Positions 39,239 to 60,920 of a stretch of 64,000 bases of DNA are shown one piece after another (the stretch's first letter is position 1; each line of letters begins with the position of its first letter). The stretch is from Candidatus Woesearchaeota archaeon (GTDB lineage Archaea; Nanobdellota; Nanobdellia; Woesearchaeales; GW2011-AR4), in NCBI GenBank assembly GCA_018303655.1, contig JAGVXT010000022.1:2633-66632 (forward strand), read 5' to 3'. A program made the position numbers and the translations under genes. Below the pieces are notes generated by a model. That model was given only the letters and a program-made list of their open reading frames with translations. It had not been told where the DNA came from and searched no databases.

Positions 39239-39311
39239 CCCGCTTTAAATTAATTATGCAACCAAATATTCGCCGAATATATTTAAATGTTTTCACCAAT
39301 AAACACAGCTT

Positions 39312-40298: not shown

Positions 40299-40305
40299 TG
40301 TAGCG

Positions 40306-41094: not shown

Positions 41095-41192
41095 GACACC
41101 CCCTCGAACATCTTAATTGGCTGGATAACTTAGGCAATCTATTTAAATTTTTTCTATATGCCGGAACAGAAAATAATTCCAGCCAATCATCA

Positions 41193-42269: not shown

Positions 42270-42287
42270 AGTTTTTCACATTAAATT

Positions 42288-44055: not shown

Positions 44056-44547
44056 CTATTGATTTCTATAAGCGTCAAGAATCCTGCTTATCAGCCCTGT
44101 TGTGGAGTATCCTTTTTCCACTTTGGCGATTGCAATTTTTCCGTTATTTTTCTCTACAACACCTTTCTCAATAATCTGATGGATTTTATAATCCCCGGCT
44201 TTCACATGAAAATCAGGCTTTATCTTTTCCAGCCATTTTACAGGATCATTTTCATCAAAAAGGAAAACAAAATCAACGCTTTCCAATGCAGCCAGCACAA
44301 AAATTCTTGACTTTTCATCATTAATCGGCCTCTTGTCGCCTTTGTTTATCTTTACAGATTTGTCTGTGTTGACCCCAACAATTAAAAAATCCCCAAGCTT
44401 CTTTGCCTCCTCAAGATATTTAACATGCCCAAGATGGAGAATATCAAAAACGCCGTTTGTTGTCACAATTTTTTTATTTTGTTTTTTTAGTTTATTGACT
44501 ATGGGAATTAATTTTTTTAATGTGATGATTTTTTTATTGATTGTCAT
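44056..44547 (-). CDS. hldC: D-glycero-beta-D-manno-heptose 1-phosphate adenylyltransferase (RfaE domain II type)
   Basis: KIVTTNGVFDILHLGHVKYLEEAKKLGDFLIVGVNTD. Cytidylyltransferase-fold HxGH motif at stand-alone size (163 aa). Confidence 0.8.
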   Translation of the reverse strand: MTINKKIITLKKLIPIVNKLKKQNKKIVTTNGVFDILHLGHVKYLEEAKKLGDFLIVGVNTDKSVKINKGDKRPINDEKSRIFVLAALESVDFVFLFDENDPVKWLEKIKPDFHVKAGDYKIHQIIEKGVVEKNNGKIAIAKVEKGYSTTGLISRILDAYRNQ

Positions 44548-45064
44548 TTTTAACTATCCATTTGGCAGCTTCCATCAAGTCCTTAGCTATGAAATCAGGC
44601 TTGGCCTCTTTTATTGTCTTTTTTCCGTCACCAGTCAATACAAGTATGGATTTGCAGTTCGCATTTTTTCCTAATTCAACATCGGCTTTTTTGTCCCCAA
44701 TGACAAAGGATTTCTTCAAATCTATCCTGAATTTTTTCTCTGCAACCTTTAAAAATTTTGTTTTTGGCTTCCTGCAGCTGCAGTTATCTTCCGGCTTGTG
44801 CGGGCAGTAATATGTTTTTTCTATTTTTATGTTGTGTTTTTTCAATTCAGCTAAAACTTCTTTATTATAATTGAAAAACTCCTTTAGTGTAAAAAAGCCC
44901 TTTCCTATGCCAGACTGATTTGTGACTATGAATATTTTAAAATTTCTTAATAGCTTCAGGCCTTTAACCGCATTTGGCAACAGCTTGAAATCCCCTATTT
45001 TGTGGGCATATCCAATGTCATGCGTGATTGTGCCGTCCCTGTCGATAAAAACAGCTGCTGTCAT
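44534..45064 (-). CDS. gmhB: D-glycero-D-manno-heptose 1,7-bisphosphate phosphatase
   Basis: AVFIDRDGTI, VTNQSGIGKG, CPHKPEDNCSCRKP (Zn loop) and GDKKAD. HAD-IIIA GmhB signature. Confidence 0.85.
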   Translation of the reverse strand: MTAAVFIDRDGTITHDIGYAHKIGDFKLLPNAVKGLKLLRNFKIFIVTNQSGIGKGFFTLKEFFNYNKEVLAELKKHNIKIEKTYYCPHKPEDNCSCRKPKTKFLKVAEKKFRIDLKKSFVIGDKKADVELGKNANCKSILVLTGDGKKTIKEAKPDFIAKDLMEAAKWIVKNDNQ

Positions 45065-46035
45065 AATTCCTCAATTCCCCTTTTGATTTCCTCAATGCTG
45101 ACAGAGGCGGTCCCTATTTTCCCGACTTTTATTCCGGCTGCAATGTTTGCTATTACTGCAGCCTCCTCAAGGCTTGCTCCTGATGCAAGCGCAAGCGCTA
45201 TCGCGGCAACAACAGTGTCGCCTGCGCCTATTAAGCTGTAAACTTCCTTGGCTTTTGCAGGAATATGCACAACCTTTCCGTCTTTCTCGAACAAAGACAT
45301 GCCTTTTTCCCCCCTTGTGATCAAAACATTTGAATTAAGGTATTTCATAAGCTTGGGGCCCATCTCCAATACAGCATCGTCGCTGCCATCCTCAATGCCT
45401 GTCATCTCGCTTGCTTCTGCATTATTTGGAGTAATCAAGGTAGCATTTGAGTAAAGATCCCTGTGCTTTGGCTTTGGATCTACTATCACAGGCTTGTTGC
45501 TGCTCCTTGCCATTTCAATAAGCCTGCCGCACACAGCTTGATTTATAACGCCCTTTGCATAGTCGGAAATAACCACAACATCCACATCTTTGATTGCATT
45601 TTCTAGAAATTTTACCATATCTTTTTCTATATTTTGATGGATATTATCTTTCTTTTCATAGTCAACCCTCAGCAGCTGCTGGCTTCTTCCGACAATTCTC
45701 ACTTTTTGAGTTGTTGGCTTGTCGGCGTCGATAATAATTCCATCTGTGTTGACGCCCATGCCCTTCAATTCCCTGATAAGAATATTTTTTGCTTCGTCAT
45801 TTCCCGCAATGCCTGCCATGTAAACTTTTCCGTTTAGAGCAGATGCATTGCTTGCAACATTGGAAGCGCCACCAGGCGCATATGTTTCTTTTGATACATT
45901 TACAACCTGAACAGGGGCTTCAGGGCTTATCCTTGAGACATCCCCCCAGATGTATTTGTCAAGCATGATGTCGCCTATTACGAGGATTTTTTTATTTTTA
46001 AAATTTTCCAGTATTTTTAACAGCCTTTGCTTCAT
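45061..46035 (-). CDS. hldA: D-glycero-D-manno-heptose 7-phosphate kinase (RfaE domain I type, PfkB family)
   Basis: ILVIGDIMLDKYIWGDVSRISPEAPVQVVNV, GGASNVASN and GAGDTVVA. Confidence 0.8.
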   Translation of the reverse strand: MKQRLLKILENFKNKKILVIGDIMLDKYIWGDVSRISPEAPVQVVNVSKETYAPGGASNVASNASALNGKVYMAGIAGNDEAKNILIRELKGMGVNTDGIIIDADKPTTQKVRIVGRSQQLLRVDYEKKDNIHQNIEKDMVKFLENAIKDVDVVVISDYAKGVINQAVCGRLIEMARSSNKPVIVDPKPKHRDLYSNATLITPNNAEASEMTGIEDGSDDAVLEMGPKLMKYLNSNVLITRGEKGMSLFEKDGKVVHIPAKAKEVYSLIGAGDTVVAAIALALASGASLEEAAVIANIAAGIKVGKIGTASVSIEEIKRGIEEL

Positions 46036-46036
46036 T

Positions 46037-46948
46037 TCAAATCCCCTCCATTACCGCCCTGTGCAGTGTTGGAACTGTTTTTTCATGCTTTTCAATGATT
46101 ATAAATCCTTTTCCCCCCAATGAAGTCGGCCTCTGGACAACATTCTCCCTTGGCCTGTAATGGTCTATCATGTCAAAGTTTGCCGCTGTTATGTTTTCAA
46201 CTTTATAGCCAAGATTTCTTGCGATTGTCAAAGCTTTTAGAAAAACTTCCGGCAGTATTACAGCGCAGCCTATGTTTAATATGACACCGCCTTCCATCCT
46301 GCTTACGCTTTCTGCAAAAATTTTAAAATCTTTATATGAAGTCTTTCCGACAGCAGCGCCGTCGCAGCTGGGATGCTGGTGTATAATGTCAGTTCCGATT
46401 GCAACATGCACAGTAACTGGAATATTTAAGTTGTATGCATTATATAAAATGCTGCATTCCTTGTTTGGAAGATTTAAATCGCTTATTTTCTTTCCAATGG
46501 AATAACCCAAGCCATAATTATTTTCAGCGCCTTCCTTGATTGCCTCATTTAGCATTCTGCCGGTTTCCTCTATCATTCCAAATGTGCCGTATTCAATTGT
46601 CTGCTCAACATATTCTGAAGTTTCTCCAATCAAAGCCAATTCAAAATCATGGATTGGGCCTGCGCCGTTCATTGCAATGTGCTTTATAACCCCTTTTTTC
46701 ATCAGGTCAATTATCAAAAGGCTCATGCCTACCTTGATAACATGGGCTCCCATCATCAGGATAATTTGCTTTTTGTTTTTGTAAGCATTGATTATATGAT
46801 TTGACAATTCATTGAACTCTTTTGTATTTATCAAAACTTTAGAATTTTCAGGCTTGATCAAATCATTCAATTTTACCTTATTTTTCCTTTTTTTTATGGA
46901 GATTGTTTTTATCCTGCTGAAGTCAAGCATTTTTATCACTTTTTCCAT
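46037..46948 (-). CDS. Conserved-looking protein of unknown function embedded in the heptose operon
   Basis: 303 aa and soluble, with MMGAHVIKVGMS, NGAGPIHDFELALIG and HVAIGTDIIHQHP. Only a vague resemblance to the deoxyhypusine-synthase-like Rossmann fold by eye. Ends 1 nt before the hldA start. Confidence 0.4.
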   Translation of the reverse strand: MEKVIKMLDFSRIKTISIKKRKNKVKLNDLIKPENSKVLINTKEFNELSNHIINAYKNKKQIILMMGAHVIKVGMSLLIIDLMKKGVIKHIAMNGAGPIHDFELALIGETSEYVEQTIEYGTFGMIEETGRMLNEAIKEGAENNYGLGYSIGKKISDLNLPNKECSILYNAYNLNIPVTVHVAIGTDIIHQHPSCDGAAVGKTSYKDFKIFAESVSRMEGGVILNIGCAVILPEVFLKALTIARNLGYKVENITAANFDMIDHYRPRENVVQRPTSLGGKGFIIIEKHEKTVPTLHRAVMEGI

Positions 46949-47187
46949 TTTTGTAATATAAGCATAAAAATAATTATGGCGATAAATATAATCGCGGTTA
47001 TTATTATCAACAATTTTTTTCTTAATAATAGAGATGTTATCAGCAATAATATATCAATGATTAGAATCAAATCTAGGTAAAAAATAGTTTTACCCTTTTC
47101 GTACGAGTCGACTAAAAATCCAACTTCTTTCCAAACCATTTTATTAAAAAATCTATCTTTTTTATTTTCCAAACAATTCTTTTTCAA
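46936..47187 (-). CDS. Small membrane protein
   Basis: 83 aa with two hydrophobic segments. Overlaps both neighbours in the same-strand gene string. Confidence 0.35.
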   Translation of the reverse strand: MKKNCLENKKDRFFNKMVWKEVGFLVDSYEKGKTIFYLDLILIIDILLLITSLLLRKKLLIIITAIIFIAIIIFMLILQKWKK

Positions 47188-47728
47188 CTAATTCACAAAT
47201 AATATGTCCTGCTAGCATGTAACCCTCCTGAATTCTTGGAGTATCATTGGAGGGTACATTTAAACAAATATCTACTTTATTTTTCAATACTCCCCCACTT
47301 TTGCCTGTAAATGCAACAGTGATTCCTCCTAACTCTTTGGCTTTCTCTATTCCTTTAATTACATTCTTTGAATTACCACTTGTGCTAATTCCTATTACAA
47401 TGTCTCCTTTTTTTACAAATCCCTCAACCTGTTTTGCAAACACATCTTCATAATCATAATCATTTCCTATAGCAGTTAAGCTTACATTATCAGTCAAAGC
47501 TATTGCAGGAAGAGATTTTCTGTTGAAATAATAACGAGATACAAACTCAGTTGCTAGATGCATACTATCAGAACAGCTGCCGCCATTACCAAATAAAATA
47601 ACTTTGCCATCATGTTTATAGCAATGTATAATCGTTTCCGCTATTTTTTGTACCGTTTCTTTGCTCCCTGATAGTCTCTCTATTGCTTCTTTATGTTCAT
47701 TTATTCTTTTTAGTATTAAATCTTCCAT
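47162..47728 (-). CDS. gmhA: Phosphoheptose (sedoheptulose-7-phosphate) isomerase
   Basis: SIS domain with GKVILFGNGGSCSDSMHLATEFVSRY and GISTSGNS. MEDLILKRINEH at 47728 matches the usual GmhA N-terminus. Confidence 0.85.
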   Translation of the reverse strand: MEDLILKRINEHKEAIERLSGSKETVQKIAETIIHCYKHDGKVILFGNGGSCSDSMHLATEFVSRYYFNRKSLPAIALTDNVSLTAIGNDYDYEDVFAKQVEGFVKKGDIVIGISTSGNSKNVIKGIEKAKELGGITVAFTGKSGGVLKNKVDICLNVPSNDTPRIQEGYMLAGHIICELVEKELFGK

Positions 47729-48254
47729 TTTTAATGTCCTCCAATATTTTATCAACATTGGCTTTTGGCTTTATGATTATAAACTTTAAGTTATTCTTCC
47801 TATACACTTCTAATTTTCCTTTCCAATCTTCTTCTGTTTCCTTACGCATGCCATCTACTTCTATAAAAACATCATTAACTAAGAAGTCTGCATATTTTGT
47901 GGAATTTGGTATGTGTGGATGTATGATGTGTCTCAAGTTATGCTCTGTTAATTTCTCGTCAACCCACAATTCCAGAGACGAATAACACAAGTGACCATCT
48001 GAAACGGTAGAATAAGTTCCGAAGCCATAAGTTCCGCTGTTTACCCACGGTTCCATATATTTTCTTGCTAATTCAGGATGATTTTTAATCCACTCTTTCT
48101 TCTTTTGACTTATTCTTTGTCTAATTGTTTTTAGGCTTACCGTAGCCGACCTTTGAGTTTCAAAGGGAAAAACATAATGAGCGAAAAAATCACATTCTAG
48201 GTGATTAGTAAGTTTAAATACTTTGTCCGCAGATGTCCAGTGGTATGCTAACAT
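47697..48254 (-). CDS. PD-(D/E)xK (Vsr/DUF559-like) nuclease-fold protein
   Basis: SSLELWVDEKL...YADFLVNDVFIEVDGM fits the S-x-x-E ... D-F ... (I/V)E(V)DG core of DUF559/Vsr-like endonucleases. Its 3' end overlaps the gmhA start by 32 nt. Confidence 0.4.
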   Translation of the reverse strand: MLAYHWTSADKVFKLTNHLECDFFAHYVFPFETQRSATVSLKTIRQRISQKKKEWIKNHPELARKYMEPWVNSGTYGFGTYSTVSDGHLCYSSLELWVDEKLTEHNLRHIIHPHIPNSTKYADFLVNDVFIEVDGMRKETEEDWKGKLEVYRKNNLKFIIIKPKANVDKILEDIKNGRFNTKKNK

Positions 48255-49177: not shown

Positions 49178-50344
49178 ATGAGATACCTGAAATATATTGT
49201 TAACGGACTTAATCCTAAGAAATTCTATTATATTTCATCTATATCTCTTAGAGACTCCTTAAAAAGAAGGTATCCCGCTTACGATAATGAAAAGCATATC
49301 AAAGGTGCTATGGAGTGGATGAGCTATGCGCAAAAGCAAAATAATGACGGCGGGGTAAGCGCCATGTACTCCTTGCTTGAGGGCTGGCACCCTTCCTATA
49401 TCGAAACAACAGGCTACATAATACCCACATTCCTAAACTATGGGGAAATATCAAAAAATTTTATTTACAAGAAAGAAGCAATAGAGATGGCTGATTTTGA
49501 GCTTAGAAGCCAGCTTGCTTCAGGCGCTTTTCCGGGCGGCGGGAAAAAAGACATGCCCATAGTATTCAACACCGGCCAAGTTCTTTTCGGGCTTTGCAGG
49601 GCATATGAAGAAACCAAAGACGAAAAATACAGGAAAGCAGCTGATAAAGCAGCAGACTGGCTGCTTTCAGTCATGGATGAAGACGGATGCTGGAGAAAAA
49701 ATGATTATCTTAATTACCCGCATTCGTACAATACAAGGAGCTCCCATGCGCTTTTGTATGCCTATAAAATAAGCGGAAATGCAGCATACCAAAAATCTGC
49801 GGAAAAGAACATTGACTGGAGTTTGACGCAACAACTGGAAAACGGGTGGCTGCAGAATAATGGGTTTTATCCCGAGCAGGAGCCTTTGGTTCACACAATC
49901 GCGTACTCCATCATTGGAATATTGGAAGCAGCAATCCATTCAAGAAAAAAGAAATATCTTGATGCTGCTGTCAAAGCTGCAACTGCACTAATGCACGTTC
50001 AAAGAGATGACGGCTCGCTCCAGGGCAGCTTCAACAAAGATTGGAAAAGCAGCGTAAAATGGTCATGTTTGACAGGAAACTCGCAGATGTCAATAATATG
50101 GCAGAAGCTTTTCATGGCAACAAAGCGAAAAGAATTCCTGGACGCTGCAAAAAAAAGCAATGAGTACATGAAGACAGTTCAAAACATGGCTTCTCCAAAC
50201 CCCGGAATCAGAGGCGGGATTCCAGGAGCGTATCCAATATACGGGTGGTATGCACCTTTCTGCTTTCCGAATTGGGCTGCAAAGTTCTTTGTGGATGCTA
50301 TGATGCTTGAGATGCACCCTGAAATGCATGCGAAGATTATGTGA
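49178..50344 (+). CDS. (alpha/alpha)6-toroid protein, prenyltransferase/terpene-cyclase-repeat-like
   Basis: Recurrent DGG/DGC-W/DGS-containing helical repeats: QNNDGGVS, ASGAFPGGG, DEDGCWRK, LENGWLQ, RDDGSLQGSF. Family assignment is tentative. Confidence 0.4.
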   Translation: MRYLKYIVNGLNPKKFYYISSISLRDSLKRRYPAYDNEKHIKGAMEWMSYAQKQNNDGGVSAMYSLLEGWHPSYIETTGYIIPTFLNYGEISKNFIYKKEAIEMADFELRSQLASGAFPGGGKKDMPIVFNTGQVLFGLCRAYEETKDEKYRKAADKAADWLLSVMDEDGCWRKNDYLNYPHSYNTRSSHALLYAYKISGNAAYQKSAEKNIDWSLTQQLENGWLQNNGFYPEQEPLVHTIAYSIIGILEAAIHSRKKKYLDAAVKAATALMHVQRDDGSLQGSFNKDWKSSVKWSCLTGNSQMSIIWQKLFMATKRKEFLDAAKKSNEYMKTVQNMASPNPGIRGGIPGAYPIYGWYAPFCFPNWAAKFFVDAMMLEMHPEMHAKIM

Positions 50345-50379: not shown

Positions 50380-51273
50380 CTATTGATTCAGGAAGAACTT
50401 TCTTTCAATAAATTTGTTCAGTTTCTTCAGGATCTTCGGCTCCCTTTTAAGAAAGAAGCAGCTGAATGTGTTGAATATTCTGAAAATCTTCGGTTCGTTT
50501 TTTAGGAAGAAAAAAATGTCCTTGTCCAGCAGCTTTTGCCCTTCCTTAAAAAAAGCGCCAGCCTCCACCATTGATATTCTGCCATGGCCTAATTTGGCCT
50601 CTTTCAGCAGTTTTTTCCCAATAAGATGTTTTTCAAGATTTGACAAGAGGGTAAAAAATACCACATACTTCACATAAAAAGTAATTTCATCTTCGTATTC
50701 TTTATCGCTGTCAACTATTTTGCCCCTGATTTTTTTCATGTACCTGTATGGCACTCCGTGCATCTGCTCAATGTAGTGGACAAAAGTGCAGGACTGGAAT
50801 GGCGCGCCAAAAAATATTATTTTGCCGTTTAGCTTGTGGAGCTTTCCAAAAATGGAGTCATTGCCAAATGTGTCTTTTCCTATTCTTAATAGCTCACTCT
50901 TGTATTTGCCCCACACAGCCACCGAATGATCTGCATGAGTTGTTCTGCCGACATCAGGCAGCTTTCTAAAATATTCAGTAAGAATGCCAACTTTTGATTT
51001 GGAATTTGCCATGTCGTAAGGCTTGTTTTCTGTGAAGCTGTAAGTAAAGGTCGGCATTATTATTGTTCCAGCGCTACCGACGCTTTCTTTGAGAGTGCCT
51101 ATCAGTGTTTTCAGAAGAAATGCCGCATCAAGTGTTGATAGCTTTCCAAATGCAGAAATGTCAGAGTGTACAAAAAGGATATCGCCTTTTTTTATTCCGC
51201 ATCTCCTAAGAGCCTTGGCAATATCGGCTTGATATATACACCTCTCATTGGCTTTGTATAATGGTTTCATCAT
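50380..51273 (-). CDS. AAC(3)-family (Antibiotic_NAT-like) acyltransferase
   Basis: IKKGDILFVHSDISAFGKL, GTIIMPTFTYSF and FVHYIE. Layout of aminoglycoside 3-N-acetyltransferase-like proteins. Confidence 0.55.
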   Translation of the reverse strand: MMKPLYKANERCIYQADIAKALRRCGIKKGDILFVHSDISAFGKLSTLDAAFLLKTLIGTLKESVGSAGTIIMPTFTYSFTENKPYDMANSKSKVGILTEYFRKLPDVGRTTHADHSVAVWGKYKSELLRIGKDTFGNDSIFGKLHKLNGKIIFFGAPFQSCTFVHYIEQMHGVPYRYMKKIRGKIVDSDKEYEDEITFYVKYVVFFTLLSNLEKHLIGKKLLKEAKLGHGRISMVEAGAFFKEGQKLLDKDIFFFLKNEPKIFRIFNTFSCFFLKREPKILKKLNKFIERKFFLNQ

Positions 51274-51276
51274 TTT

Positions 51277-51714
51277 TTAGAATAATACCTGCACAATGCC
51301 CGCTCCTTTAAACACAAGCTCTTTTCCGTTCCTATACATTTCAATATTAATCTCTATTAAATTAGTTGATTTGATATTATTAACAACTTTGCCGACAATC
51401 TTAATTTTGTCGCCGATAAAAAAGGGTTTTATGAACTTGGCGTCCTGCTTGATGCAAATTGAGCTTCCTCCTGGCAGATATTCCCCGTACAGCCTCGAGA
51501 GAAAGCCGGTCAGCATGAACCCGTAGCCAATCTTCCTTTTAAATTTGGTTTTTGAGCAGAATTTGTCATCGCAATGAATCGGGCTGAAATCTCCGAATAA
51601 TTTTGCGAAAGAAGCATGGCTTTCTTCATTGATTTCAACTTCAAACTGGGCTTTATCGCCAATTTTAATATCTGAAAAAGATCTGGCTTGCCTGTGGCTT
51701 GCTGCTCTATCCAT
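51277..51714 (-). CDS. MaoC-like hotdog-fold (de)hydratase
   Basis: FAKLFGDFSPIHCDDKF and IGYGFMLTGFLSRLYG. ATG 51714 lies 1 nt after the ACP stop. Confidence 0.65.
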   Translation of the reverse strand: MDRAASHRQARSFSDIKIGDKAQFEVEINEESHASFAKLFGDFSPIHCDDKFCSKTKFKRKIGYGFMLTGFLSRLYGEYLPGGSSICIKQDAKFIKPFFIGDKIKIVGKVVNNIKSTNLIEINIEMYRNGKELVFKGAGIVQVLF

Positions 51715-51715
51715 T

Positions 51716-51934
51716 TTATTTCCTCTTTTTTGAGACAACTTCCTGCAGTTCCTTAAATGTCTTAATTTGCTCGACTTCAAGCATAGTGAACTTGACTTTC
51801 AGTTCTTTTTCAATTTCGCTGATAAGCAGGAGGTGATTAAATGAATCCCACTCTTCCGTGTTGTTGCGGGATACGTTTTCATTAATACTATCTATATTAA
51901 GCACCCTTGATACAATTTGTTTTAAGCTGTCCAT
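51716..51934 (-). CDS. Acyl carrier protein
   Basis: 72 aa and acidic. EEWDSFNHLLLISEIEKEL contains the DS(L/F) phosphopantetheine-attachment serine followed by an amphipathic helix. Confidence 0.7.
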   Translation of the reverse strand: MDSLKQIVSRVLNIDSINENVSRNNTEEWDSFNHLLLISEIEKELKVKFTMLEVEQIKTFKELQEVVSKKRK

Positions 51935-51938
51935 AATG

Positions 51939-53750
51939 CTACCTTTTTACCACTTTAATGAAATCAGGAGACTTATATTTCTTTGCGAGGTCATATTCCC
52001 AAACCTCAGTACCTGAATCTTTACTTGCTAATTTAAAGCCATTATTTTTGTAGAAATCCAGAGCAGGCGCATTCTTTTTAGTATGGACAAACTCTCCAGC
52101 CAGCACCTTGGCACCCTCATTTCCTGCCTGTTCAATGACATTCGCAAGCAAGACTTCCTCAACCTTTCTGCCAATTACCCTGCAGCTCAGCAAAAAGGTG
52201 TCTATTCTCCAGCCCTCATTTCCCTTTTCTACTATAACTGCCCCGGTTATGCCATTGTCTCCGAATTTATCCTCGATTTTTACCGATAAAACAAGAAAAT
52301 TATCGCTTCTGGAAAATTTATTGATGTCCTCTTCAGCATACCTTCTTGTTGTCATATTAAACTGGTTTGTTTTCTGCGTAAGCTGGGAAATTCTTGGTAT
52401 GCTAAAAGAATTGGCCTTTTTTATTGTAGCAACCATCTTAAGATTTTTGAGGTATCCTGTGATGTCTGATGCAGCATTTTGAAATTTATTTCTTTTTCTT
52501 TGCTCTGCGTACATTCTTCCCCTTTTCCTGTCTTCTTCTGTAAGCTGGTAGGTATCAAATTCATTTAGCTCCATTAATTTTTTAAGATAAAGGGCGGCAT
52601 CTTCAGGCATATCCACAACAAGCACTTCCGGCAAAGCGTTGCTTACAATTTCCCTGTTTAATTTATCATCATCGAAAAAAACCAGGCTGTCCATGCCTAT
52701 GTTTATCTCCTCAGCAATAGCCTTCATGTTTGATATTTTATCGTTCCAGTTTACCTGCATTGCCGCAAAATGCTCCTCCTTTAAAATCATGTACGGATGT
52801 TCCCGAAAAACCTTTAATGCGTCCTCAGGATTATTGCTGCTGTTTATTGCCAATGCAACGCCCCGGTTGAAGAGTGAAAGCAAATATTTTTGGAACTCTA
52901 AAAATGGCTTTCCTTCAGGATCAGGCCCAAGCTTTATGCCTTTGATTCCATCTTCGCCTATAATCCCGCCCCATAATATATTATCAAGATCTAAAACAAT
53001 GCATTTTCTTGTAGCCTGCACTAACGGCTTTATGTATGCAAGGTATTTATCGCATAATTCAGGCATGTATTGCAGATCTATTTTAATGTCGCCCAAAAAG
53101 TACATTTTATAATCCATGATATTCTGCCTGCCAATGCCAGAGCAAAATGAGTCGTAATCCAGGATATGCACTTGAGGATCCCTTTTGAAAGCATCCCTTA
53201 AGCCGGTATTGATTTTTTCTATGGATTCTATAAACCCAAATTCCTGCTTATTTTCAAGAATGCCCAAAGGGGAATGCAGCGGGATTTCAAAATTATGAAG
53301 TAAAATTTTTGCAGAGGAGTTATCATTTATTTTTTTTATCAAGGATACAATCTCCTTTAATTTTTCATCTACCCAAGCCTTTCTTTGTTCATTGGAAATT
53401 TGATAAGGCAAAAGATAATTATTGCCTAACAATGTTATGGTGTCTATAAAAATAATTATTAAATCAGGCTTGAATTCATAAAGCCTGCCCTTAGAGTCCA
53501 GAATCTCCTGCGAATACTGGTTGTAGTCGCCAACATAAATCTCCGGAACAACGCCAATCTCGCAGCATTTTATAAATAGAGTTTCTTTTACGCCTTTAAC
53601 GGTAAAGCTTGACAACAGAGCGATTTTAATGATTTTGCTGTTTTGCAATTGCAGCCTTTTAATTTCCCCTTCCACATCCCTATACAGGCTAAAGTAATCT
53701 GCAATTCCCCTGATTTCTTTTGAAGAAATTATTTCTTTTATGGTCTTCAT
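51939..53750 (-). CDS. FkbH-like HAD-IIIC phosphatase/loader with C-terminal GNAT-like domain
   Basis: CIVLDLDNILWGGIIGEDGIKGIKLG (DxDxT-type HAD motif of FkbH proteins), ALAINSSNN and FFDDDKLN. The C-terminus carries the VIGRKVEE... motif. Confidence 0.7.
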   Translation of the reverse strand: MKTIKEIISSKEIRGIADYFSLYRDVEGEIKRLQLQNSKIIKIALLSSFTVKGVKETLFIKCCEIGVVPEIYVGDYNQYSQEILDSKGRLYEFKPDLIIIFIDTITLLGNNYLLPYQISNEQRKAWVDEKLKEIVSLIKKINDNSSAKILLHNFEIPLHSPLGILENKQEFGFIESIEKINTGLRDAFKRDPQVHILDYDSFCSGIGRQNIMDYKMYFLGDIKIDLQYMPELCDKYLAYIKPLVQATRKCIVLDLDNILWGGIIGEDGIKGIKLGPDPEGKPFLEFQKYLLSLFNRGVALAINSSNNPEDALKVFREHPYMILKEEHFAAMQVNWNDKISNMKAIAEEINIGMDSLVFFDDDKLNREIVSNALPEVLVVDMPEDAALYLKKLMELNEFDTYQLTEEDRKRGRMYAEQRKRNKFQNAASDITGYLKNLKMVATIKKANSFSIPRISQLTQKTNQFNMTTRRYAEEDINKFSRSDNFLVLSVKIEDKFGDNGITGAVIVEKGNEGWRIDTFLLSCRVIGRKVEEVLLANVIEQAGNEGAKVLAGEFVHTKKNAPALDFYKNNGFKLASKDSGTEVWEYDLAKKYKSPDFIKVVKR

Positions 53751-53752
53751 AG

Positions 53753-54148
53753 TCAGTCAACTTCAATCACAACAGCAAATGCTATAGCCTTATCCCCGCA
53801 ATGCGATAAACTGAGGTGTACCTGCAAATTACGAAAATCTATGTCATTAATTGTTGCTATTGGAACTCCCTTTTCATTATTAAATATTTCTAATGCCTTG
53901 TAATCCAGACTTGCTTTGCCCATGCTGCTTAACGCCTTAACAATTGCTTCCTTGCCAGCATATCTTGCAGCCAGACAGGAAGCATGCACTTCCTTTGAAA
54001 AGCAATAGTCCAGCTCATTTTTTGTGAAAACCTTATTCAAAAATATATCATGATCTGTGTGATTAAGCTTTCTGAACCTGCCTATAGATTCAATGTCTGT
54101 GCCAATTGCAAAATTCTTAATCTCCATCATATTAAACCAATTTTTCAA
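53753..54148 (-). CDS. acpS: Holo-[acyl-carrier-protein] synthase (4'-phosphopantetheinyl transferase, AcpS type)
   Basis: FAIGTDIESIGRF, FTKNELDYC, LAARYAGKEAIVKAL and LSLSHCGDKAIAFAV. The start may be Met8 (54127). Confidence 0.75.
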   Translation of the reverse strand: MKNWFNMMEIKNFAIGTDIESIGRFRKLNHTDHDIFLNKVFTKNELDYCFSKEVHASCLAARYAGKEAIVKALSSMGKASLDYKALEIFNNEKGVPIATINDIDFRNLQVHLSLSHCGDKAIAFAVVIEVD

Positions 54149-55286
54149 CTTCTTTCAAAACATCGTCAATGCTGATGTTTTTCATGCATTTCTGGTAGTC
54201 ATTGCTGTTTCTTGGGTATAAACAATCCGGAACCTGGCCTTTGTGCACATTAATGCACGGGCTGAACTCGCAATTGTAGCCTTTGTACAATCCAATGTTT
54301 CCTTTTCCATAGGGTCCAAACCTTACCGGCAGATTAGGCCCAAACAACCCAAGAGTTTTAATTCCCTGGGCAGCTGCAACATGCATAGGCCCTGAATCAT
54401 TGCCGATGAAAAGCTTGCATTTGCTGATCAAATAGAACAGCTGGTTTAATGCCACCTTTCCGGCTGCATTTATTGTCTTGCCTTTTTTGTCCATTTTTTT
54501 TTGTATATTATCTATTGCTTCATTTTCATTTAAAGCGCCGACGAAAATAATTTTTACATCGTGCTTGGCTATTATCTCATCGCAAAGCTCAGCGTACTTG
54601 TCATAAGGCCACATTCTTGCTTTTGCGGACTCGGCAGCGCCAGGGGCAACGCAGGCAACAAAATCATTGCTTTTTATTCCGTTATCCTTTAAAAACTTAT
54701 CAACAAGATTCCTGTCGCTCTTGGAGAAATTTAATCTTGGCAATTTCTCAAAGTTGTAAACTATCCCCAAGGACCTCACTAAATCAAGAAATGTCTGCGC
54801 AGCATGCTGCCGGTCGTTGTATTTAATTTTTGCATCATACAATTTTGCCCTTGAATTGTGGGAATAGCCAATAATTCTTCTTCCTGCAAAAAATGAGATT
54901 ATCGCTGAAATATTCAGGTATTCCTCCATGTCTATGACCAAATCATATTTTTTAACATTCTTTAAGACAAACCCGAGAATTGACAGAGGATTCAATTTTA
55001 TTGTAATTATTCTGCTGATGTTTTTATTGCTGAAATAAACATCCTTGTTCCTTGATGTTGCCAGCACATTTACCTCTGCATTTGGAAAATCCTTTCTCAG
55101 CGCTTCAATAGAAGGCAAGGTCAAAACAGTTTCCCCTATCCCCCAAAGCTGCACAACCAGGATTTTATCAATTTTCAGCTTATTGCCATTTTTTTTTGCC
55201 TTGAATAAGCCAAGAAAATTGCACACAAAATTCCCGATATATCTGTCAATAAATTTGATTATGGCTACCATAGCCCGGAGTAACAA
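54132..55286 (-). CDS. Family 9 glycosyltransferase (heptosyltransferase-like)
   Basis: ILVVQLWGIGETVLTLPSIEALRKDFP, APGAAESAKARMWP and FIGNDSGPMHVAAAQG. Confidence 0.75.
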   Translation of the reverse strand: MLLRAMVAIIKFIDRYIGNFVCNFLGLFKAKKNGNKLKIDKILVVQLWGIGETVLTLPSIEALRKDFPNAEVNVLATSRNKDVYFSNKNISRIITIKLNPLSILGFVLKNVKKYDLVIDMEEYLNISAIISFFAGRRIIGYSHNSRAKLYDAKIKYNDRQHAAQTFLDLVRSLGIVYNFEKLPRLNFSKSDRNLVDKFLKDNGIKSNDFVACVAPGAAESAKARMWPYDKYAELCDEIIAKHDVKIIFVGALNENEAIDNIQKKMDKKGKTINAAGKVALNQLFYLISKCKLFIGNDSGPMHVAAAQGIKTLGLFGPNLPVRFGPYGKGNIGLYKGYNCEFSPCINVHKGQVPDCLYPRNSNDYQKCMKNISIDDVLKEVEKLV

Positions 55287-55317: not shown

Positions 55318-55650
55318 TTATTTCCTGTATTTCCTCATTGCAATGTCCCGAACTACGGTCTCGAGCTTTTTCTGCACTTTTCTTGTGACAGTGTATGTAT
55401 AAAAAATGGCCGCAATTAGGAAAAGAAAGCCGCTGATAATGAGCAAATCAAGAGCCCTTAAAAACCCCCCTATTTTGACTATTGGGTCTAAGATATTCGG
55501 GAATAATGATATGGCAATGAACAATATCCATACGACAGACCAAAAGAATATTTCCTTTGATGTGAATTCCCTTCTTTTGTAGTTCAGAAAAGAGTAATAA
55601 ATCATAAACAATCCGAATAAAATGCCAGCTATCTGAATTCCCAGCACCAT
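55318..55650 (-). CDS. DUF2304-family small membrane protein
   Basis: 110 aa with 3 TM segments and a basic C-terminal helix. YKRREFTSKEIFFWSVVWILFIAISLFPNIL. Typical partner of the adjacent GT2. Confidence 0.6.
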   Translation of the reverse strand: MVLGIQIAGILFGLFMIYYSFLNYKRREFTSKEIFFWSVVWILFIAISLFPNILDPIVKIGGFLRALDLLIISGFLFLIAAIFYTYTVTRKVQKKLETVVRDIAMRKYRK

Positions 55651-55651
55651 T

Positions 55652-56320
55652 TTACCTATTGTTGAACAATTTCCACCAAACCATGTTCAGGACTATTTTT
55701 ATGCCGTCTATTATTGTCGTGCCCTTGTACTTGTCGGAGTATATTGTTTGTATGGGAATCTGCACGTATTTTAAACTTTGCTTTCCTGCCCTTGATATCA
55801 TTTCGGACTCCATTGAATAGTCTGGAGCATTCCACCTTATCCTCTTGTATGCCTCTTTTGAAAAAGCGCGGAATCCGCATTGGGTGTCATTCAACCCGAT
55901 TCCATACAAAACTTTCACAACATTGGATATAAACAAGTTTCCCAGGCGAAGCACCAAGGGCATTTTGCTGCTTGCTTTCCTGTAGCTGAAAACTATGTCA
56001 TATTTTTGCAATTTCTCGATAAAGCGCGGTATGTCTTCAGGCCTGTGCTGGGAATCAGCGTCCAGAACAATAGCATATCCTGCGCCGTTTTTGAAGGCAT
56101 AATCGCATCCGGTTTTAAGGGCAGCGCCTTTGCCAAGATTTACTATATGGACAAGCACAACAGCGCCTGATTTTTCAGCAAGCTTCTTTGTATTGTCTGT
56201 GCTGCCGTCATCAACAATCACAACATTGCCTACATATTTCTTAGTCTTCTTTATTACATCTGCAATGTTCTTCTGCTCATTGCGGGCAGGTATCACAGCC
56301 CATACATCGCTTATTTTCAT
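55652..56320 (-). CDS. Family 2 glycosyltransferase (polyprenol-phosphate sugar synthase-like)
   Basis: WAVIPARNEQKNI, VIVDDGSTDNT, VLDADSQHRP and NDTQCGFRAF. Confidence 0.8.
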   Translation of the reverse strand: MKISDVWAVIPARNEQKNIADVIKKTKKYVGNVVIVDDGSTDNTKKLAEKSGAVVLVHIVNLGKGAALKTGCDYAFKNGAGYAIVLDADSQHRPEDIPRFIEKLQKYDIVFSYRKASSKMPLVLRLGNLFISNVVKVLYGIGLNDTQCGFRAFSKEAYKRIRWNAPDYSMESEMISRAGKQSLKYVQIPIQTIYSDKYKGTTIIDGIKIVLNMVWWKLFNNR

Positions 56321-59300
56321 TTAAGAATTATTTGTTTTGTTTTGTGTCAGGTTTATGCTTCCGATCACAGTTTCTTCCTTGACCGGAGCGTTCAGGATAT
56401 TTACATAATCTTCAACAATAGCCGGATTTCTGCCTTCCCAATCCACTTTGTAAATATATATGTTTGTTCCAGTCAATCCGCGCTGGTGATTAAATAACTT
56501 GAAATATCTGAGGCCGTGGCCCTGCATGTAAAACATTCTCGTGAACATTGAGCCTGTTAATTCATTGCTTGATATGACAACATCAAGCTCATTTTCATTT
56601 TTTGGTATTACAGTCATGCCAAAGTCAAGGGTACTGCCGTTGAAACTCTTCTTAATAAAGATGCCACTTTCTGTTGTGAATGCAGCTACTTTAGGCCTTA
56701 TAATGCCTTGCTGGCCTACTCCAAAAATATCATAGTTGCTTAGGTTTACCTGAAGGCCGTTGCCGCAAACATAAACCTCTTGAGTGTTTTTGCTGCAGCT
56801 AGTAGTGCCTCCATAACCAGGCCATGGAGCAACCCATGTATTGGCCTCGCTGTCACTTGATATAGCCTGTATTTCAAAATAAATGTTTTCAGCCCTTTCT
56901 TTTGTGTAATTGAATTTATCCATCATATATCCAACAGCCTTCTCTTGGGACATTTTTTTTGCATTAAACCATATGTCAGCCCTTTCAAAATTCCAGCTGC
57001 CAAAATGGCTCCATACGCCGCTTTTGCCAATCATGTCTTCTGAGGCTATGAAATAAGCTTCCGGCGGCTCACAGTGCGTGAAAGAAAGAATTTTTTCAAT
57101 TTGTTTTTCATTAAATCCGAATGATTTTAGTTTTTTTTCCGCTTCTTTTTTATTCATTAATATGATTTGATTTAATATTTTTAATGATAGATGAGTATCG
57201 TTATTGGCCTCATATAGTGTATTGAAAGCTTTATTGCTTCCGCAGTCAAGCATTCTTAAAATAGCCACAGCTTCTGATTCGTTTTGTGACATTAGCAGCT
57301 TTCCAACCCAGTGCGCAGGAGGGTGGGTTTGGGTAGTCCCGTCAAATGTGACTCTTCTTTCAGCAATAGATTTGAAGTGGTGCCCAAAATCCCACCACGA
57401 TGTTATAATTGCATTTTCGCTTGAGTTTTGTTTTATTGCAATCAAGGCGTTATACCAAGCGTCATTGATGATTGGTATGTCAGCTCCGGCACTGCTGACA
57501 GCGCCCCTAATAGGATTGGCGTACATCAAAAGCAATAATGCAATCAAAATGACACTGCTTATAATTTTATGAATTTTTAGCTCTTTGGTCAGCACGCTTG
57601 ATAGATAAACATAGATTTTTCCAAGAGCAGCCCCAAATGCAACGCTGAAGGCAGGAGCAAGCAATAGGGTAAATCTTATGCCCTTGATGCTTGCAAAAAT
57701 CGTCGAGACTATCCAGAGGGACAACAATAAAGAAAGTTTGAAATCATAGGATGAGTCTTTTTTATAGACTGAAATTCCAATTCTTATAAAAATGGGCAGC
57801 ATTATCCAAACCAACAAACCGAAAACAGATAGGTCAAACCCAATCCTTCTGAGTAAAAAGTACGAGCCATAAAAAATAATTGTGCCGATTATGTAAAAAA
57901 AATCAAACCTTCTTATCCCTCCAGTCATGGATATTGCCAGAATCAAACCAAGCAAGCTTATAAAAAAAAGAAATTGGCCCCCTATTGAATTTATAATCCC
58001 ATCAATTGATCCCTCATTTAATTCCGCAACAGTTGTAAGCACATTTGGCCATAATGAAGAACCGCCAACTGGATCTTTAATTGACGGAAAGCTTAATGGT
58101 CCCAGAAAGCTTTTTCTAAATGTGCGCCATCCTGAAAATAGAACAATAAATGCCAGTGTTGAGAGGAAATAAAGAAAACCCACTATAATTATATTCCTAA
58201 CGGCGGTGTTAGAACTCAATACTCTGGGGTTTCTTTTTATTTCACCAAAGTTTATCAGAACCAAATATAAAAATGTTATTCCAATAGTTGCCAGCAAAAA
58301 GTCAAATATATACCACCATCCGCTCCATGCCAATGTAAACAATCCCGTCATAAACCCGGCAAGCAGGGATATAGCCGCGATTTTTAAAGTGTTTTTGGCG
58401 TCTATTGTTGTTACAAACAGCCAAGTTATCATCAATGGAAAAAATATAACCCATATATCATTGTCAGGATGAAGGGACCTTGACAAGAAAGCGCCATTAA
58501 CAGCCATTATCATTCCAGCAAAAAATCCTCCAATATTGCCGGCGATCTTTTTTGCAATTAAAAATACAAGCAACACGCATAAAGCTGAAAAAAATATTAC
58601 TAGGAAAAAACCAGAGCGGATTAATGACAGGTCAGGCATAAAAAAATGAAGGAATTTGTAAAAATAAGCCCATGAATACGAATGGAACGTGTCGGGATAT
58701 ACAAATCTTCCAAGAGGGGCTAATTGCAGATTGTCAAATGATTTGCCGTCTTTCAGCACATCACCAGGGTGTCCATGCTCAACAATATTTTCTGCATACC
58801 TGAGCCAGTAATATGGATCGATGTCGGGCATGTAGTTCTTTCCGTTTTCATCCTGGAAAAATGCCTTGAAGTATTGAGATGTTGCCTTGACCTGCTGGTC
58901 AATCTGCGCTTTGTTTTGGGTTAAAATCTTCTGCAGCTCCGTATCAACAAGCGCATTTTTGTTTGCATCAGGCAAGTTTGGATATTGCTGGTCGATCGAA
59001 GACATTATTTGGGACTTAATTCCATTTATCACGCTGTTCGCAGCCCAGTCATCGGTTACAGGCAGGAATCCGGCCTGCATCCTGACGTAGATTGAAAGGA
59101 CTATTGGAATAAGCGCGATAAAAATAATGCCGTATTTTTTGAAGAAGTCAATAACTTTGCCCCATTCTATTGCTGTATCATCCTCTTCATTTCCAGCTTC
59201 TTTTTCACCGGATTTAAAAAATTTTTTAACTTTGTCAAAGTCAAAAGACAGCTCCATGTTTTCGTCGTCTTTTGCTGTGTGGCTTGCTTTTGTTTCCTCT

Positions 59301-59479
59301 TTTTTTTCACTCTTAAAGAAACTTTTTACCTTGCCAAAGTCAATGGATATTTCATCATCTTCTTTTTTTTCAGCCACCGAGATTTCTTCTTCTTTCTTCT
59401 CCTCTTTCTTATCGCTCTTAAAGAATTTCTTTATTTTGCCAAAGTCGATAGATATTTCTTCATCTTCTTTTGAATCCAT
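56321..59479 (-). CDS. aglB: Archaeal oligosaccharyltransferase, STT3/AglB family
   Basis: 1052 aa. Repeat-bearing N-terminal extension of about 115 aa, then a 13-TM-like core, the ITSWWDFGHH (WWDxG) catalytic motif, and a large C-terminal soluble domain. Confidence 0.85.
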   Translation of the reverse strand: MDSKEDEEISIDFGKIKKFFKSDKKEEKKEEEISVAEKKEDDEISIDFGKVKSFFKSEKKEETKASHTAKDDENMELSFDFDKVKKFFKSGEKEAGNEEDDTAIEWGKVIDFFKKYGIIFIALIPIVLSIYVRMQAGFLPVTDDWAANSVINGIKSQIMSSIDQQYPNLPDANKNALVDTELQKILTQNKAQIDQQVKATSQYFKAFFQDENGKNYMPDIDPYYWLRYAENIVEHGHPGDVLKDGKSFDNLQLAPLGRFVYPDTFHSYSWAYFYKFLHFFMPDLSLIRSGFFLVIFFSALCVLLVFLIAKKIAGNIGGFFAGMIMAVNGAFLSRSLHPDNDIWVIFFPLMITWLFVTTIDAKNTLKIAAISLLAGFMTGLFTLAWSGWWYIFDFLLATIGITFLYLVLINFGEIKRNPRVLSSNTAVRNIIIVGFLYFLSTLAFIVLFSGWRTFRKSFLGPLSFPSIKDPVGGSSLWPNVLTTVAELNEGSIDGIINSIGGQFLFFISLLGLILAISMTGGIRRFDFFYIIGTIIFYGSYFLLRRIGFDLSVFGLLVWIMLPIFIRIGISVYKKDSSYDFKLSLLLSLWIVSTIFASIKGIRFTLLLAPAFSVAFGAALGKIYVYLSSVLTKELKIHKIISSVILIALLLLMYANPIRGAVSSAGADIPIINDAWYNALIAIKQNSSENAIITSWWDFGHHFKSIAERRVTFDGTTQTHPPAHWVGKLLMSQNESEAVAILRMLDCGSNKAFNTLYEANNDTHLSLKILNQIILMNKKEAEKKLKSFGFNEKQIEKILSFTHCEPPEAYFIASEDMIGKSGVWSHFGSWNFERADIWFNAKKMSQEKAVGYMMDKFNYTKERAENIYFEIQAISSDSEANTWVAPWPGYGGTTSCSKNTQEVYVCGNGLQVNLSNYDIFGVGQQGIIRPKVAAFTTESGIFIKKSFNGSTLDFGMTVIPKNENELDVVISSNELTGSMFTRMFYMQGHGLRYFKLFNHQRGLTGTNIYIYKVDWEGRNPAIVEDYVNILNAPVKEETVIGSINLTQNKTNNS
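59135..59470 (-). repeat. Four degenerate repeats (D/E-rich spacer plus [S/E][IF]DFGK[IV]K.FFKS) in the AglB N-terminal extension
   Basis: EISIDFGKIKKFFKSDKKEE / EISIDFGKVKSFFKSEKKEE / ELSFDFDKVKKFFKSGEKE / AIEWGKVIDFFKKYG. Confidence 0.7.
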
Positions 59480-60788: not shown

Positions 60789-60920
60789 GATTTTGGGGAA
60801 TATTTATTGTTTATATAGCTAATGCCAAGCATGTCCAAATTATAGCTGATTTTGTACCTACTATCCAATAACGAAAACTTTAAAAAGGGGTATATACTAC
60901 CAGTAAGCGTTGGGGTCATA

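Follow-up and report, generated by a model that had tools for sequence, protein, structure and literature searches.

What an acyl carrier protein (ACP) system is doing inside the protein glycosylation operon of an archaeon is the question raised by the 64,000-nucleotide (nt) stretch of Woesearchaeota DNA analysed here, which as a whole is called the window (64 kb; all coordinates are positions in it). Archaea are treated as nearly devoid of ACP and AcpS (PMC3533463; bioRxiv 10.1101/2024.07.05.601840), but five tightly packed open reading frames (ORFs) on the minus strand, at 50380-54148, encode AcpS, an FkbH-like protein, an ACP, a MaoC-type hotdog protein and an AAC(3)-like acyltransferase. 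We think it probable that these five genes and a convergent gene for a predicted sugar-binding barrel make up a self-contained, carrier-protein-dependent module which acylates a surface-glycan sugar of the AglB locus in a Woesearchaeota (DPANN) archaeon. The identities of the genes, their conserved catalytic residues, the packing of the operon, its host, its synteny with related loci and several gene fusions carry this reading. The genes of the module are:

53753-54130, minus strand: AcpS-type 4'-phosphopantetheinyl transferase (PPTase), 125 amino acids (aa); PF01648, TIGR00556, TIGR00516
51939-53750, minus strand: FkbH-like loader, 603 aa, with FkbH_N, HAD-IIIC phosphatase and C-terminal GNAT-fold domains; TIGR01686, PF21211
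51716-51934, minus strand: stand-alone ACP, 72 aa, predicted phosphopantetheine site Ser31 in W-D-S; PF00550
51277-51714, minus strand: MaoC-type hotdog (R)-hydratase/dehydratase, 145 aa; PF01575, 50.7 bits against a cut-off of 27
50380-51273, minus strand: AAC(3)-fold (Antibiotic_NAT) acyltransferase, 297 aa; PF02522, 138.7 bits against a cut-off of 25
49178-50344, plus strand: predicted (α/α)6-barrel sugar-binding protein, 388 aa, convergent with the cassette; AlphaFold2 model with pLDDT 93.9

Gene identities and the archaeal host

A first-pass annotation, made by a model from the sequence, had named the first gene a holo-ACP synthase, and the curated cut-offs agree: its product scores 57.4 bits with PF01648 (cut-off 25), 69.4 with TIGR00556 (45.35) and 61.2 with TIGR00516 (59.8), which makes it a member of the family. 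In all 22 relatives aligned, the Mg/CoA-binding residues D12, K60, E61 and K65 are unchanged. In its longest form the ORF extends to 54148, but gene callers on public contigs use the ATG at 54130 (125 aa), with a gap of 1 nt after the preceding glycosyltransferase gene and of 2 nt before fkbH. The score of the 72-aa ACP with PF00550 is borderline (21.9 bits against a cut-off of 20.8) and therefore a family profile was built from 21 cassette ACPs. This profile matches 70 distinct solved ACP sequences (best 1.6e-15, Escherichia coli AcpP 6e-7), and all 60 matches listed are ACPs, so that the original call of an ACP can be maintained. Since W29, S31 and E42 do not vary in any of 65 sequences and D30 is found in 60 of them, the predicted attachment site appears to be kept. 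This is the only ACP in the window. All the motifs quoted in the first-pass annotation are present and fall on conserved catalytic positions.

The 603-aa protein had been described as an FkbH/HAD-IIIC protein with a GNAT-like tail, and both parts of the description are borne out. It scores 306 bits with TIGR01686 (cut-off 146.65), 60.3 with TIGR01681 (35.75) and 70.7 with FkbH_N, PF21211 (27), which places it in the family, and its N-terminal two thirds match Protein Data Bank (PDB) entry 3SLR, BF1531 of Bacteroides fragilis (E = 9e-51). The full-length structural model is moderate (pLDDT 69.4, with a poor HAD core), and we used only its C-terminal domain together with the 3SLR match. Residues ~430-603 are modelled with block pLDDT values that lie mostly at 78-91, and at 68-69 in one block, and this domain matches many GNAT structures with target-normalised TM scores of 0.6-0.74. 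The residues D254, D256, S304, K338, D360 and D361, as well as the triplet S522-C523-R524, are invariant in all 80 FkbH relatives aligned, one alignment gap excepted. In the model Cys523 is placed at a strand-helix junction of the GNAT-fold domain, a position which in our reading would correspond to the pantetheine-binding site of GNAT enzymes and would fit a thioester intermediate passed to the arm of the ACP. The role of Cys523 as acyl carrier is proposed here by analogy with published work on FkbH enzymes.

The cassette is the distal part of a co-directional string of nine genes in the order AglB, GT2, DUF2304, GT9, AcpS, FkbH, ACP, MaoC and AAC(3)-like, where GT stands for glycosyltransferase family; the intergenic gaps along the string are 0, 1, 46, 1, 2, 4, 1 and 3 nt. 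The four genes in front of AcpS are:

56321-59479, minus strand: AglB/STT3 oligosaccharyltransferase, 1052 aa, first gene of the string, 0-nt gap to GT2; PF02516, 1.8e-33
55652-56320, minus strand: GT2 polyprenyl-phosphate glycosyltransferase (PpgS/AglJ-like), 222 aa; PF00535, 5.5e-23
55318-55650, minus strand: DUF2304 small membrane protein, 110 aa, 1-nt gap from the upstream gene; PF10066, 4.3e-19
54132-55271, minus strand: GT9 (heptosyltransferase-family) glycosyltransferase, 379 aa; PF01075, 2.9e-37

The GT9 gene thus lies directly upstream of the cassette, as had been noted. The relatives of AglB are 42-88% identical to it and every named one belongs to Woesearchaeota, Nanoarchaeota or Aenigmarchaeota, the best named one at 80%. 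An AglB with archaeal relatives, followed without interruption by GT2, DUF2304 and GT9, identifies this region as an archaeal N-glycosylation (Agl) locus. Several models score under their cut-offs here: AglB reaches 50.1 bits with the archaeo_STT3 subfamily model TIGR04154 (cut-off 450) and falls outside that subfamily, GT2 reaches 134.5 bits with NF058614 and 97.7 with TIGR04182, each under its equivalog cut-off, and GT9 reaches 110.7 bits with TIGR02195 (cut-off 134.6).

The DNA is that of a groundwater archaeon of the DPANN lineage Woesearchaeota, with contamination or chimerism most improbable, because the cassette is packed behind an AglB with only DPANN among its named relatives, because the arrangement was assembled repeatedly and independently, and because the GC content is even across the region. 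An identical FkbH protein in the same gene order is found on contigs from one European Nucleotide Archive (ENA) assembly (111 kb), three Joint Genome Institute (JGI) metagenomes and several Logan assemblies, and in these independent assemblies, with contigs of up to 111 kb, AglB lies 2.2 kb from the cassette. That bacterial DNA was misjoined to, or misbinned with, an archaeal contig could be suspected from the closest FkbH relatives, which include CPR (candidate phyla radiation) and Omnitrophota bacteria at 67-69% identity; against the repeated assembly of the same order, the gaps of 0-46 nt and the even GC, and with the cassette present on contigs of 47-150 kb from other Woesearchaeota metagenome-assembled genomes (MAGs), the chance of this is negligible. 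The earlier view of the segment as archaeal, not as bacterial contamination, is thus upheld. A recent horizontal transfer flagged by anomalous composition was also considered and dropped, as GC is even across the string.

Two features of the AglB gene itself were recorded. In its residues 1-100 (59180-59479, minus strand) a lysine- and glutamate-rich motif of ~30 aa, for example EISIDFGKIKKFFKS, is repeated three times in tandem ahead of the first membrane span, and an element AAGCTTTTTAAAAC stands ~35 nt upstream of the gene. A scan of the window for sigma-70 promoters and terminators was uninformative for an archaeal host, and scans for tRNA and Rfam families found no RNA genes in the window and hence no taxonomic marker.

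Relatives of the cassette and their surroundings

The FkbH-like protein matches more than 7,000 clusters at E below 1e-10, and the named clusters include Woesearchaeota, Nanoarchaeota and Omnitrophica at 60-70% identity. In a scan of species-representative genomes at least 554 relatives were found; the alignment and synteny counts given for FkbH refer to the best 80 of these, with neighbours taken within 6 kb of FkbH, and related loci are cited below by L numbers. The 80 comprise three Woesearchaeota, about 20 Nitrososphaeria (ammonia-oxidising Thaumarchaeota), CPR, Omnitrophota, Gammaproteobacteria, Firmicutes, Acidobacteriota and Planctomycetota. An ACP accompanies FkbH in 64 of the 80 loci, MaoC in 39, AcpS in 20, an AAC(3)-like gene in 17 and the (α/α)6 barrel in 7. 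The cassette is therefore a recurrent exception and not a one-off, and it is common in MAGs of Woesearchaeota and Nitrososphaeria. The statement that archaea lack ACP/AcpS-based acyl chemistry, from which the first-pass annotation had started, agrees with the literature as a generality, but for these two groups it does not describe the cassette, which is far from exceptional there. In full-text literature searches we met neither a description of an FkbH-ACP pair accompanied by an AAC(3)-like enzyme, be it in archaea or in a glycan locus, nor a biochemical characterisation of the cassette; further papers on nonulosonic acids and flagellin that were consulted make no mention of these genes.

The neighbouring ORFs of the 80 loci were clustered and representatives of the clusters annotated. 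The recurring families are NAD-dependent sugar dehydratases/epimerases (29 loci), LbH (left-handed β-helix) acyltransferases (26 loci, mostly Nitrososphaeria), GT2 (22), DegT aminotransferases (21), GT4 (19), NeuB or CMP-transferase (15), DUF3473 deacetylases (15) and UDP-GlcNAc 2-epimerases (14). Because of these neighbours we conclude that the FkbH-ACP family lives in amino-sugar and nonulosonic-acid clusters and not in polyketide clusters. The role in glycan decoration proposed earlier for the cassette fits such neighbourhoods, which were collected around 80 relatives of FkbH and 80 of the AAC(3)-like protein, and it fits the AglB operon of the window; it is read from genomic context. In one Woesearchaeota locus (L012) the cassette stands among genes for a UDP-sugar dehydrogenase, a GFO/IDH/MocA oxidoreductase, DegT and a 2-epimerase, with no LbH acetyltransferase, a gene set that recalls how WbpA/B/E/I make 2,3-diamino uronic acids, minus the WbpD step, and that may serve as a lead only.

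These surroundings bear on the possibility that the cassette makes a diffusible natural product or a lipid-like molecule on its ACP, in the manner of tetronate or methoxymalonyl-ACP polyketides or of fatty acids, instead of decorating a glycan. The biochemically characterised FkbH systems that we cite do feed polyketide or nonribosomal assembly lines (PMC7489565, PMC8949500), and the window shares with FkbH, OzmB and Tmn16 the three-domain loader (FkbH_N, HAD-IIIC and a GNAT-like domain in which a Cys is invariant), a separate ACP of its own encoded directly downstream and an expected 1,3-bisphosphoglycerate substrate (PMC7489565, PMC8949500). The pathways of these enzymes lead to methoxymalonyl-ACP, tetronates and glycerate caps, whereas among the window genes scanned against Pfam there is no match to a ketosynthase, FabH-like, condensation, adenylation, acyl-CoA-dehydrogenase or FkbG-type family. 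The partners that define methoxymalonyl-ACP and tetronate operons, namely the FkbI/FkbK dehydrogenases, the FkbG methyltransferase, a FabH-like synthase and a polyketide synthase (PKS) assembly line, are absent from these genes and from the annotated neighbour clusters of the 80 loci. In the archaeal host the acyl-ACP is apparently used by the AAC(3)-fold transferase of a glycosylation operon. As the cassette is also packed translationally with AglB, GT2 and GT9, and the related loci are amino-sugar or nonulosonic-acid clusters, we regard a natural product as quite improbable.

The distribution of AcpS is uneven. Among the loci with at least 3 kb of flank, AcpS is present beside the cassette in 13 of the 15 that are archaeal or CPR and in 2 of the 38 from other bacteria; over all loci the figures are 17 of 26 and 3 of 54 (Fisher p = 2e-8, for loci that are not phylogenetically independent). 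This bias is as expected if hosts without fatty-acid ACP machinery need a PPTase of their own, and the cassette seems to bring one where the host has no such system. It is in exactly these lineages that the cassette carries its own PPTase. Taken with its relatives, the locus stands for an ACP system that is complete in itself and that recurs in two large groups of archaea, apparently for surface-glycan tailoring and not for lipid synthesis. The Nitrososphaeria form (L022-L039, L042) has an LbH acyltransferase and a DUF3473 deacetylase on the opposite strand, followed by FkbH, ACP, MaoC and AcpS.

A neighbour-joining tree of FkbH was made, which is rough (midpoint-rooted, without outgroups or support values) and allows only the coarse pattern to be read. 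It has two archaeal clades, one of Woesearchaeota, with the window, nested among bacterial sequences, and a large one of Nitrososphaeria; the Woesearchaeota clade also holds one CPR and one 'Methanosarcinales'-binned sequence. Nesting inside bacterial sequences speaks for the acquisition from bacteria that the first-pass annotation had suggested, as far as so rough a tree goes. The 'Methanosarcinales' sequence comes from one of two short contigs binned as 'uncultured Methanosarcinales' that carry the cassette (L007 and L010). The FkbH of L007 is 70% identical to that of the window, while that of L010 is 86% identical but too truncated for the tree; the CPR sequence is from a Nealsonbacteria contig (L009). 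The presence of the cassette on these three contigs is due either to binning errors or to very recent exchange between organisms of the groundwater.

A proposed route from acyl-ACP to a glycan sugar

The proposed route would begin with AcpS, which together with CoA would convert apo-ACP into holo-ACP, as expected from its family membership. FkbH enzymes convert 1,3-bisphosphoglycerate into a glyceryl group held as a thioester on a carrier protein (PMC7489565, PMC8949500), and following this established chemistry the enzyme of the window clade would take 1,3-bisphosphoglycerate, remove the 3-phosphate at its HAD site, hold the glyceryl group on Cys523 of the GNAT-fold domain and hand it to the pantetheine arm of the ACP.

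The third step would fall to the hotdog protein, for which the PF01575 score given above agrees with the earlier MaoC-type assignment. Its longest ORF spans 51277-51780, but gene callers and the sequence favour the ATG at 51714 (145 aa). The hydratase-2 residues D42 and H47, within G-D-F-S-P-I-H, are invariant in 40 of 40 sequences and mark the protein as a member of that group. Glyceryl-ACP is a 3-hydroxyacyl thioester, and MaoC would dehydrate it to the enol of pyruvoyl-ACP; in relatives with a short-chain dehydrogenase/reductase (SDR) a reduction to lactyl-ACP would follow. This step is suggested by the intact hydratase motif and by the recurring pairing of MaoC with SDR. MaoC is fused to an SDR/KR ketoreductase in L083, L160 and L166; the SDR is an independent gene in L007, L011 and L016, where it stands between MaoC and the AAC(3)-like gene, and in L014 and L017, where it follows MaoC and no AAC(3)-like gene is adjacent. 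MaoC occurs without SDR in the window, in L008, L010 and L012 and in all MaoC-bearing Nitrososphaeria loci. Since the window has no reductase, the group transferred in its case may be either a 2-oxo-acyl or an unmodified glyceroyl.

Plain glyceroyl (2,3-dihydroxypropanoyl) could be transferred as such and possibly O-methylated later, with the hotdog protein serving as a proofreading thioesterase or as a docking subunit for acyl-ACP. N-glyceroyl and di-O-methylglyceroyl are documented C3 decorations of sugars (PMC5378307, PMC7099621), the window is without a ketoreductase, methyltransferase genes stand near the cassette in 9 related loci, and the fusions of MaoC to the AAC(3)-like domain (L020, L021, L091) suit docking as well as catalysis. 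However, the Asp and His of hydratase-2 are invariant, and the repeated fusion or placement of MaoC to or before SDR/KR is the pairing of dehydratase and ketoreductase expected for a passage from glyceryl through pyruvoyl to lactyl. We therefore hold a plain glyceroyl group to be unlikely: given a hotdog dehydratase, the group transferred is probably another one. Of the glyceryl or hydroxyacyl group put forward in the first-pass annotation, the FkbH loader and the ACP are supported, whereas glyceryl in its plain form is improbable.

A passage from glycerate to lactate on a carrier has a counterpart in the synthases of bryostatin (BryA) and FR901464, where loading by dehydratase, ketoreductase, FkbH and ACP has been proposed to turn glycerate into a lactate starter. 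The likeness would lie in the joint action of an FkbH loader and a dehydratase on a carrier-bound C3 unit, to which many relatives add a ketoreductase; the cassette differs in that its proteins are stand-alone, a MaoC hotdog takes the place of the PKS dehydratase domain, the window is without reductase and the product would go to a sugar. ACP-dependent N-acylation of sugars is likewise known in bacteria, from LpxD (LbH fold, acyl-ACP donor), from NodF/NodA in Nod factors and from the tetronate-perosamine genes RfbK-O of Vibrio cholerae O1. The principle is the same, a dedicated or housekeeping acyl-ACP that donates the N-acyl group of an amino sugar, and the Nitrososphaeria cassette (FkbH-ACP with an LbH transferase and a deacetylase) echoes the deacetylation and re-acylation by LpxC and LpxD. 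The cassette is set apart by its HAD/GNAT loader FkbH, where the bacterial systems use fatty acid synthase or an acyl-AMP ligase, by its Antibiotic_NAT fold and by its short, putatively glycolysis-derived acyl group.

Precedents for glycerate-derived groups on surface glycans also exist. The flagellin glycosylation locus of Campylobacter jejuni has a gene with an fkbH domain, cj1302, and a strain in which cj1302 is a pseudogene is without pseudaminic acids carrying dimethylglyceric acid (PMC7099621). N-glyceroyl pseudaminic acid (Pse5Am7Gra) is found in Tannerella forsythia, with genes stated to be unknown (PMC5378307), and for the suomilides an O-methylated acyl cap has been proposed to derive from glycerate that FkbH loads (PMC13122637). 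By analogy these cases make a glycan end point plausible. They resemble the cassette in the FkbH-domain gene of a glycan locus (cj1302, likened here by description only) and in a glycan with a glycerate-derived acyl group (PMC7099621, PMC5378307); they differ in that these papers connect gene and glycan by correlation only and describe no partner of the AAC(3)-like, hotdog or barrel type.

In the last step the AAC(3)-fold enzyme would move the C3 acyl group from the ACP to an amine, rather than a hydroxyl, of a nucleotide- or lipid-linked sugar, with the help of the sugar-binding (α/α)6 barrel; fold, synteny and fusions all point this way. The high score with PF02522 upholds the earlier call of an Antibiotic_NAT-like acyltransferase. 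The protein shares its fold with AAC(3) enzymes, FrbF and YokD, which are its relatives in the PDB, and the characterised members of the fold are all N-acyltransferases. It also has the T-x-x-H-x-x-E motif of these enzymes (H166, E169), with R110, H166 and E169 invariant in 18 of 18 sequences. It differs from them in its low scores with the resistance models, in its genomic coupling to an ACP instead of antibiotic pathways, and in a tail of the archaeal members: residues ~250-297 (50380-50520, minus strand) form a Lys- and Phe-rich amphipathic C-terminal extension of ~45 aa, also present in L007, L008 and L012 but absent from the CPR, Omnitrophota and other bacterial relatives aligned and from the Woesearchaeota locus L011. 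This extension may be a helix for membrane association.

The barrel gene had been missed in the first-pass annotation and is a conserved partner of the AAC(3)-like gene. Among the matches listed by Foldseek for its model, at 10-18% identity, are the GH88 unsaturated glucuronyl hydrolase (TM 0.73), cellobiose 2-epimerases and GH76 (glycoside hydrolase families); the product is thus modelled as a sugar-binding barrel to which the fold match assigns no reaction. The association was also followed from the side of the transferase, through a metagenome scan that gave 80 relatives of the AAC(3)-like protein; of these, 44 loci of at least 5 kb were counted, and FkbH is present in 28 and ACP in 27. The barrel adjoins AAC(3)-like genes in 16 of these 44 loci, as in the 7 of 80 FkbH loci, distant bacteria included. 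AAC(3)-like genes without the barrel are almost always beside, or fused to, a DUF4910/DUF2172/HTH_47 (aminopeptidase-like) protein (L009, L011, L013, L015, L016, L020, L021, L047, L095-L118 and others). Up to 39 of the 44 have either this protein (23) or the barrel (16). The two look like alternative partners of the transferase.

The counts of FkbH and ACP bear on a rival explanation, in which chance has placed an unrelated FkbH-ACP module next to a common N-acetyltransferase that uses acetyl-CoA, or next to an enzyme of aminoglycoside resistance. The AAC(3)-like protein is a member of PF02522, its relatives AAC(3), YokD and FrbF use acetyl-CoA, and a Woesearchaeota-like metagenomic locus, L087, has the transferase and the barrel with no ACP module nearby. 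On the other hand, with the AAC_3 equivalog (NF033082) it reaches 83 bits against a cut-off of 270, and with every subtype model it also stays far under the cut-off; most relatives with enough flank have FkbH and ACP as neighbours, and in some there is a fusion with MaoC. A chance neighbour is, in our judgement, a rather improbable explanation.

Several observations weigh against a module acylating the glycan by way of its ACP. There is no aminotransferase in the 64-kb window, where the sole DegT-family gene is an RfbH-type 3-dehydrase, which would not provide the amine of an acceptor sugar. In variants with no ketoreductase (the window, L008, L010, L012) the end product would be an unusual 2-oxo-acyl group, or else the hotdog protein has another role. 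The FkbH clade of the window is only distantly related to the characterised polyketide FkbH enzymes. Finally, the syntenic locus L087 (1-9955) contains AglB, GT2, the pair of barrel and AAC(3)-like genes, DUF2304, GT9 and heptose genes, but in the ~10 kb fetched AcpS, FkbH, ACP and MaoC are all missing; because of this the transferase may not depend strictly on ACP, or the module may lie elsewhere in that genome. The pair stands there between GT2 and DUF2304, unlike in the window, and its barrel ORF looks split.

What is new in the proposed acylation module is the combination of FkbH loader, hotdog protein, Antibiotic_NAT transferase and barrel or DUF4910 partner, its glycan context and its archaeal hosts, while the underlying chemistry is known. 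It is possible, and we put it forward tentatively, that a bacterial-type holo-ACP system takes part in archaeal protein glycosylation, with a dedicated AcpS and ACP carrying a glycolysis-derived C3 acyl group that ends as an N-acyl decoration of the glycan transferred by AglB in DPANN Woesearchaeota, and with a parallel form in Nitrososphaeria. The same module (FkbH-ACP-hotdog, AAC(3)-fold with barrel or DUF4910) would then be general across bacteria and archaea, and might be the missing genetic basis of N-glyceroyl and N-lactyl sugars such as those on pseudaminic acids. The cassette would tie an AAC(3)-fold enzyme family to acyl-ACP donors, and it is a candidate pathway for short hydroxy- or oxo-acyl amide decorations of glycans whose genes are reported as unknown, such as the pseudaminic acid of Tannerella mentioned above.

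Other genes of the window

The remainder of the window is almost entirely devoted to glycan biosynthesis, with many GT2, GT4 and GT9 genes, PMT_2-type membrane transferases, sugar dehydratases and methyltransferases. In this island, where all else is annotated, there are several large ORFs of 545-1389 aa without a Pfam match, at 16448-22967 (plus strand), 26320-27957 (minus), 33692-36235 (plus) and 60852-62609 (plus).

A pathway of the CDP-3,6-dideoxyhexose type lies at 37913-43301 (minus strand), with an RfbH-like PMP (pyridoxamine phosphate)-dependent 3-dehydrase (597 bits against 423), a CDP-glucose 4,6-dehydratase-like gene and a glucose-1-phosphate cytidylyltransferase (325.6 against 300). 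The 3-dehydrase gene, at 37913-39238, is the DegT-family gene discussed above; it was considered as the source of the amino-sugar acceptor and rejected, being RfbH-type and part of the CDP-dideoxyhexose pathway. Directly after these genes comes a ThDP (thiamine diphosphate)-dependent pair resembling the alpha and beta subunits of pyruvate dehydrogenase E1, which by analogy with yersiniose may add a two-carbon branch to a keto-sugar.

A complete, split ADP-heptose pathway is encoded at 44056-47758 (minus strand), comprising GmhA, GmhB and two HldE domains, the kinase (378.7 bits against 345) and the adenylyltransferase (188.5 against 181.5). Two genes of the GT9 heptosyltransferase family, at 54132-55271 and 22969-23979, both on the minus strand, are also found in the window. 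The ADP-heptose set is bacterial-type heptose chemistry beside AglB in a Woesearchaeon.

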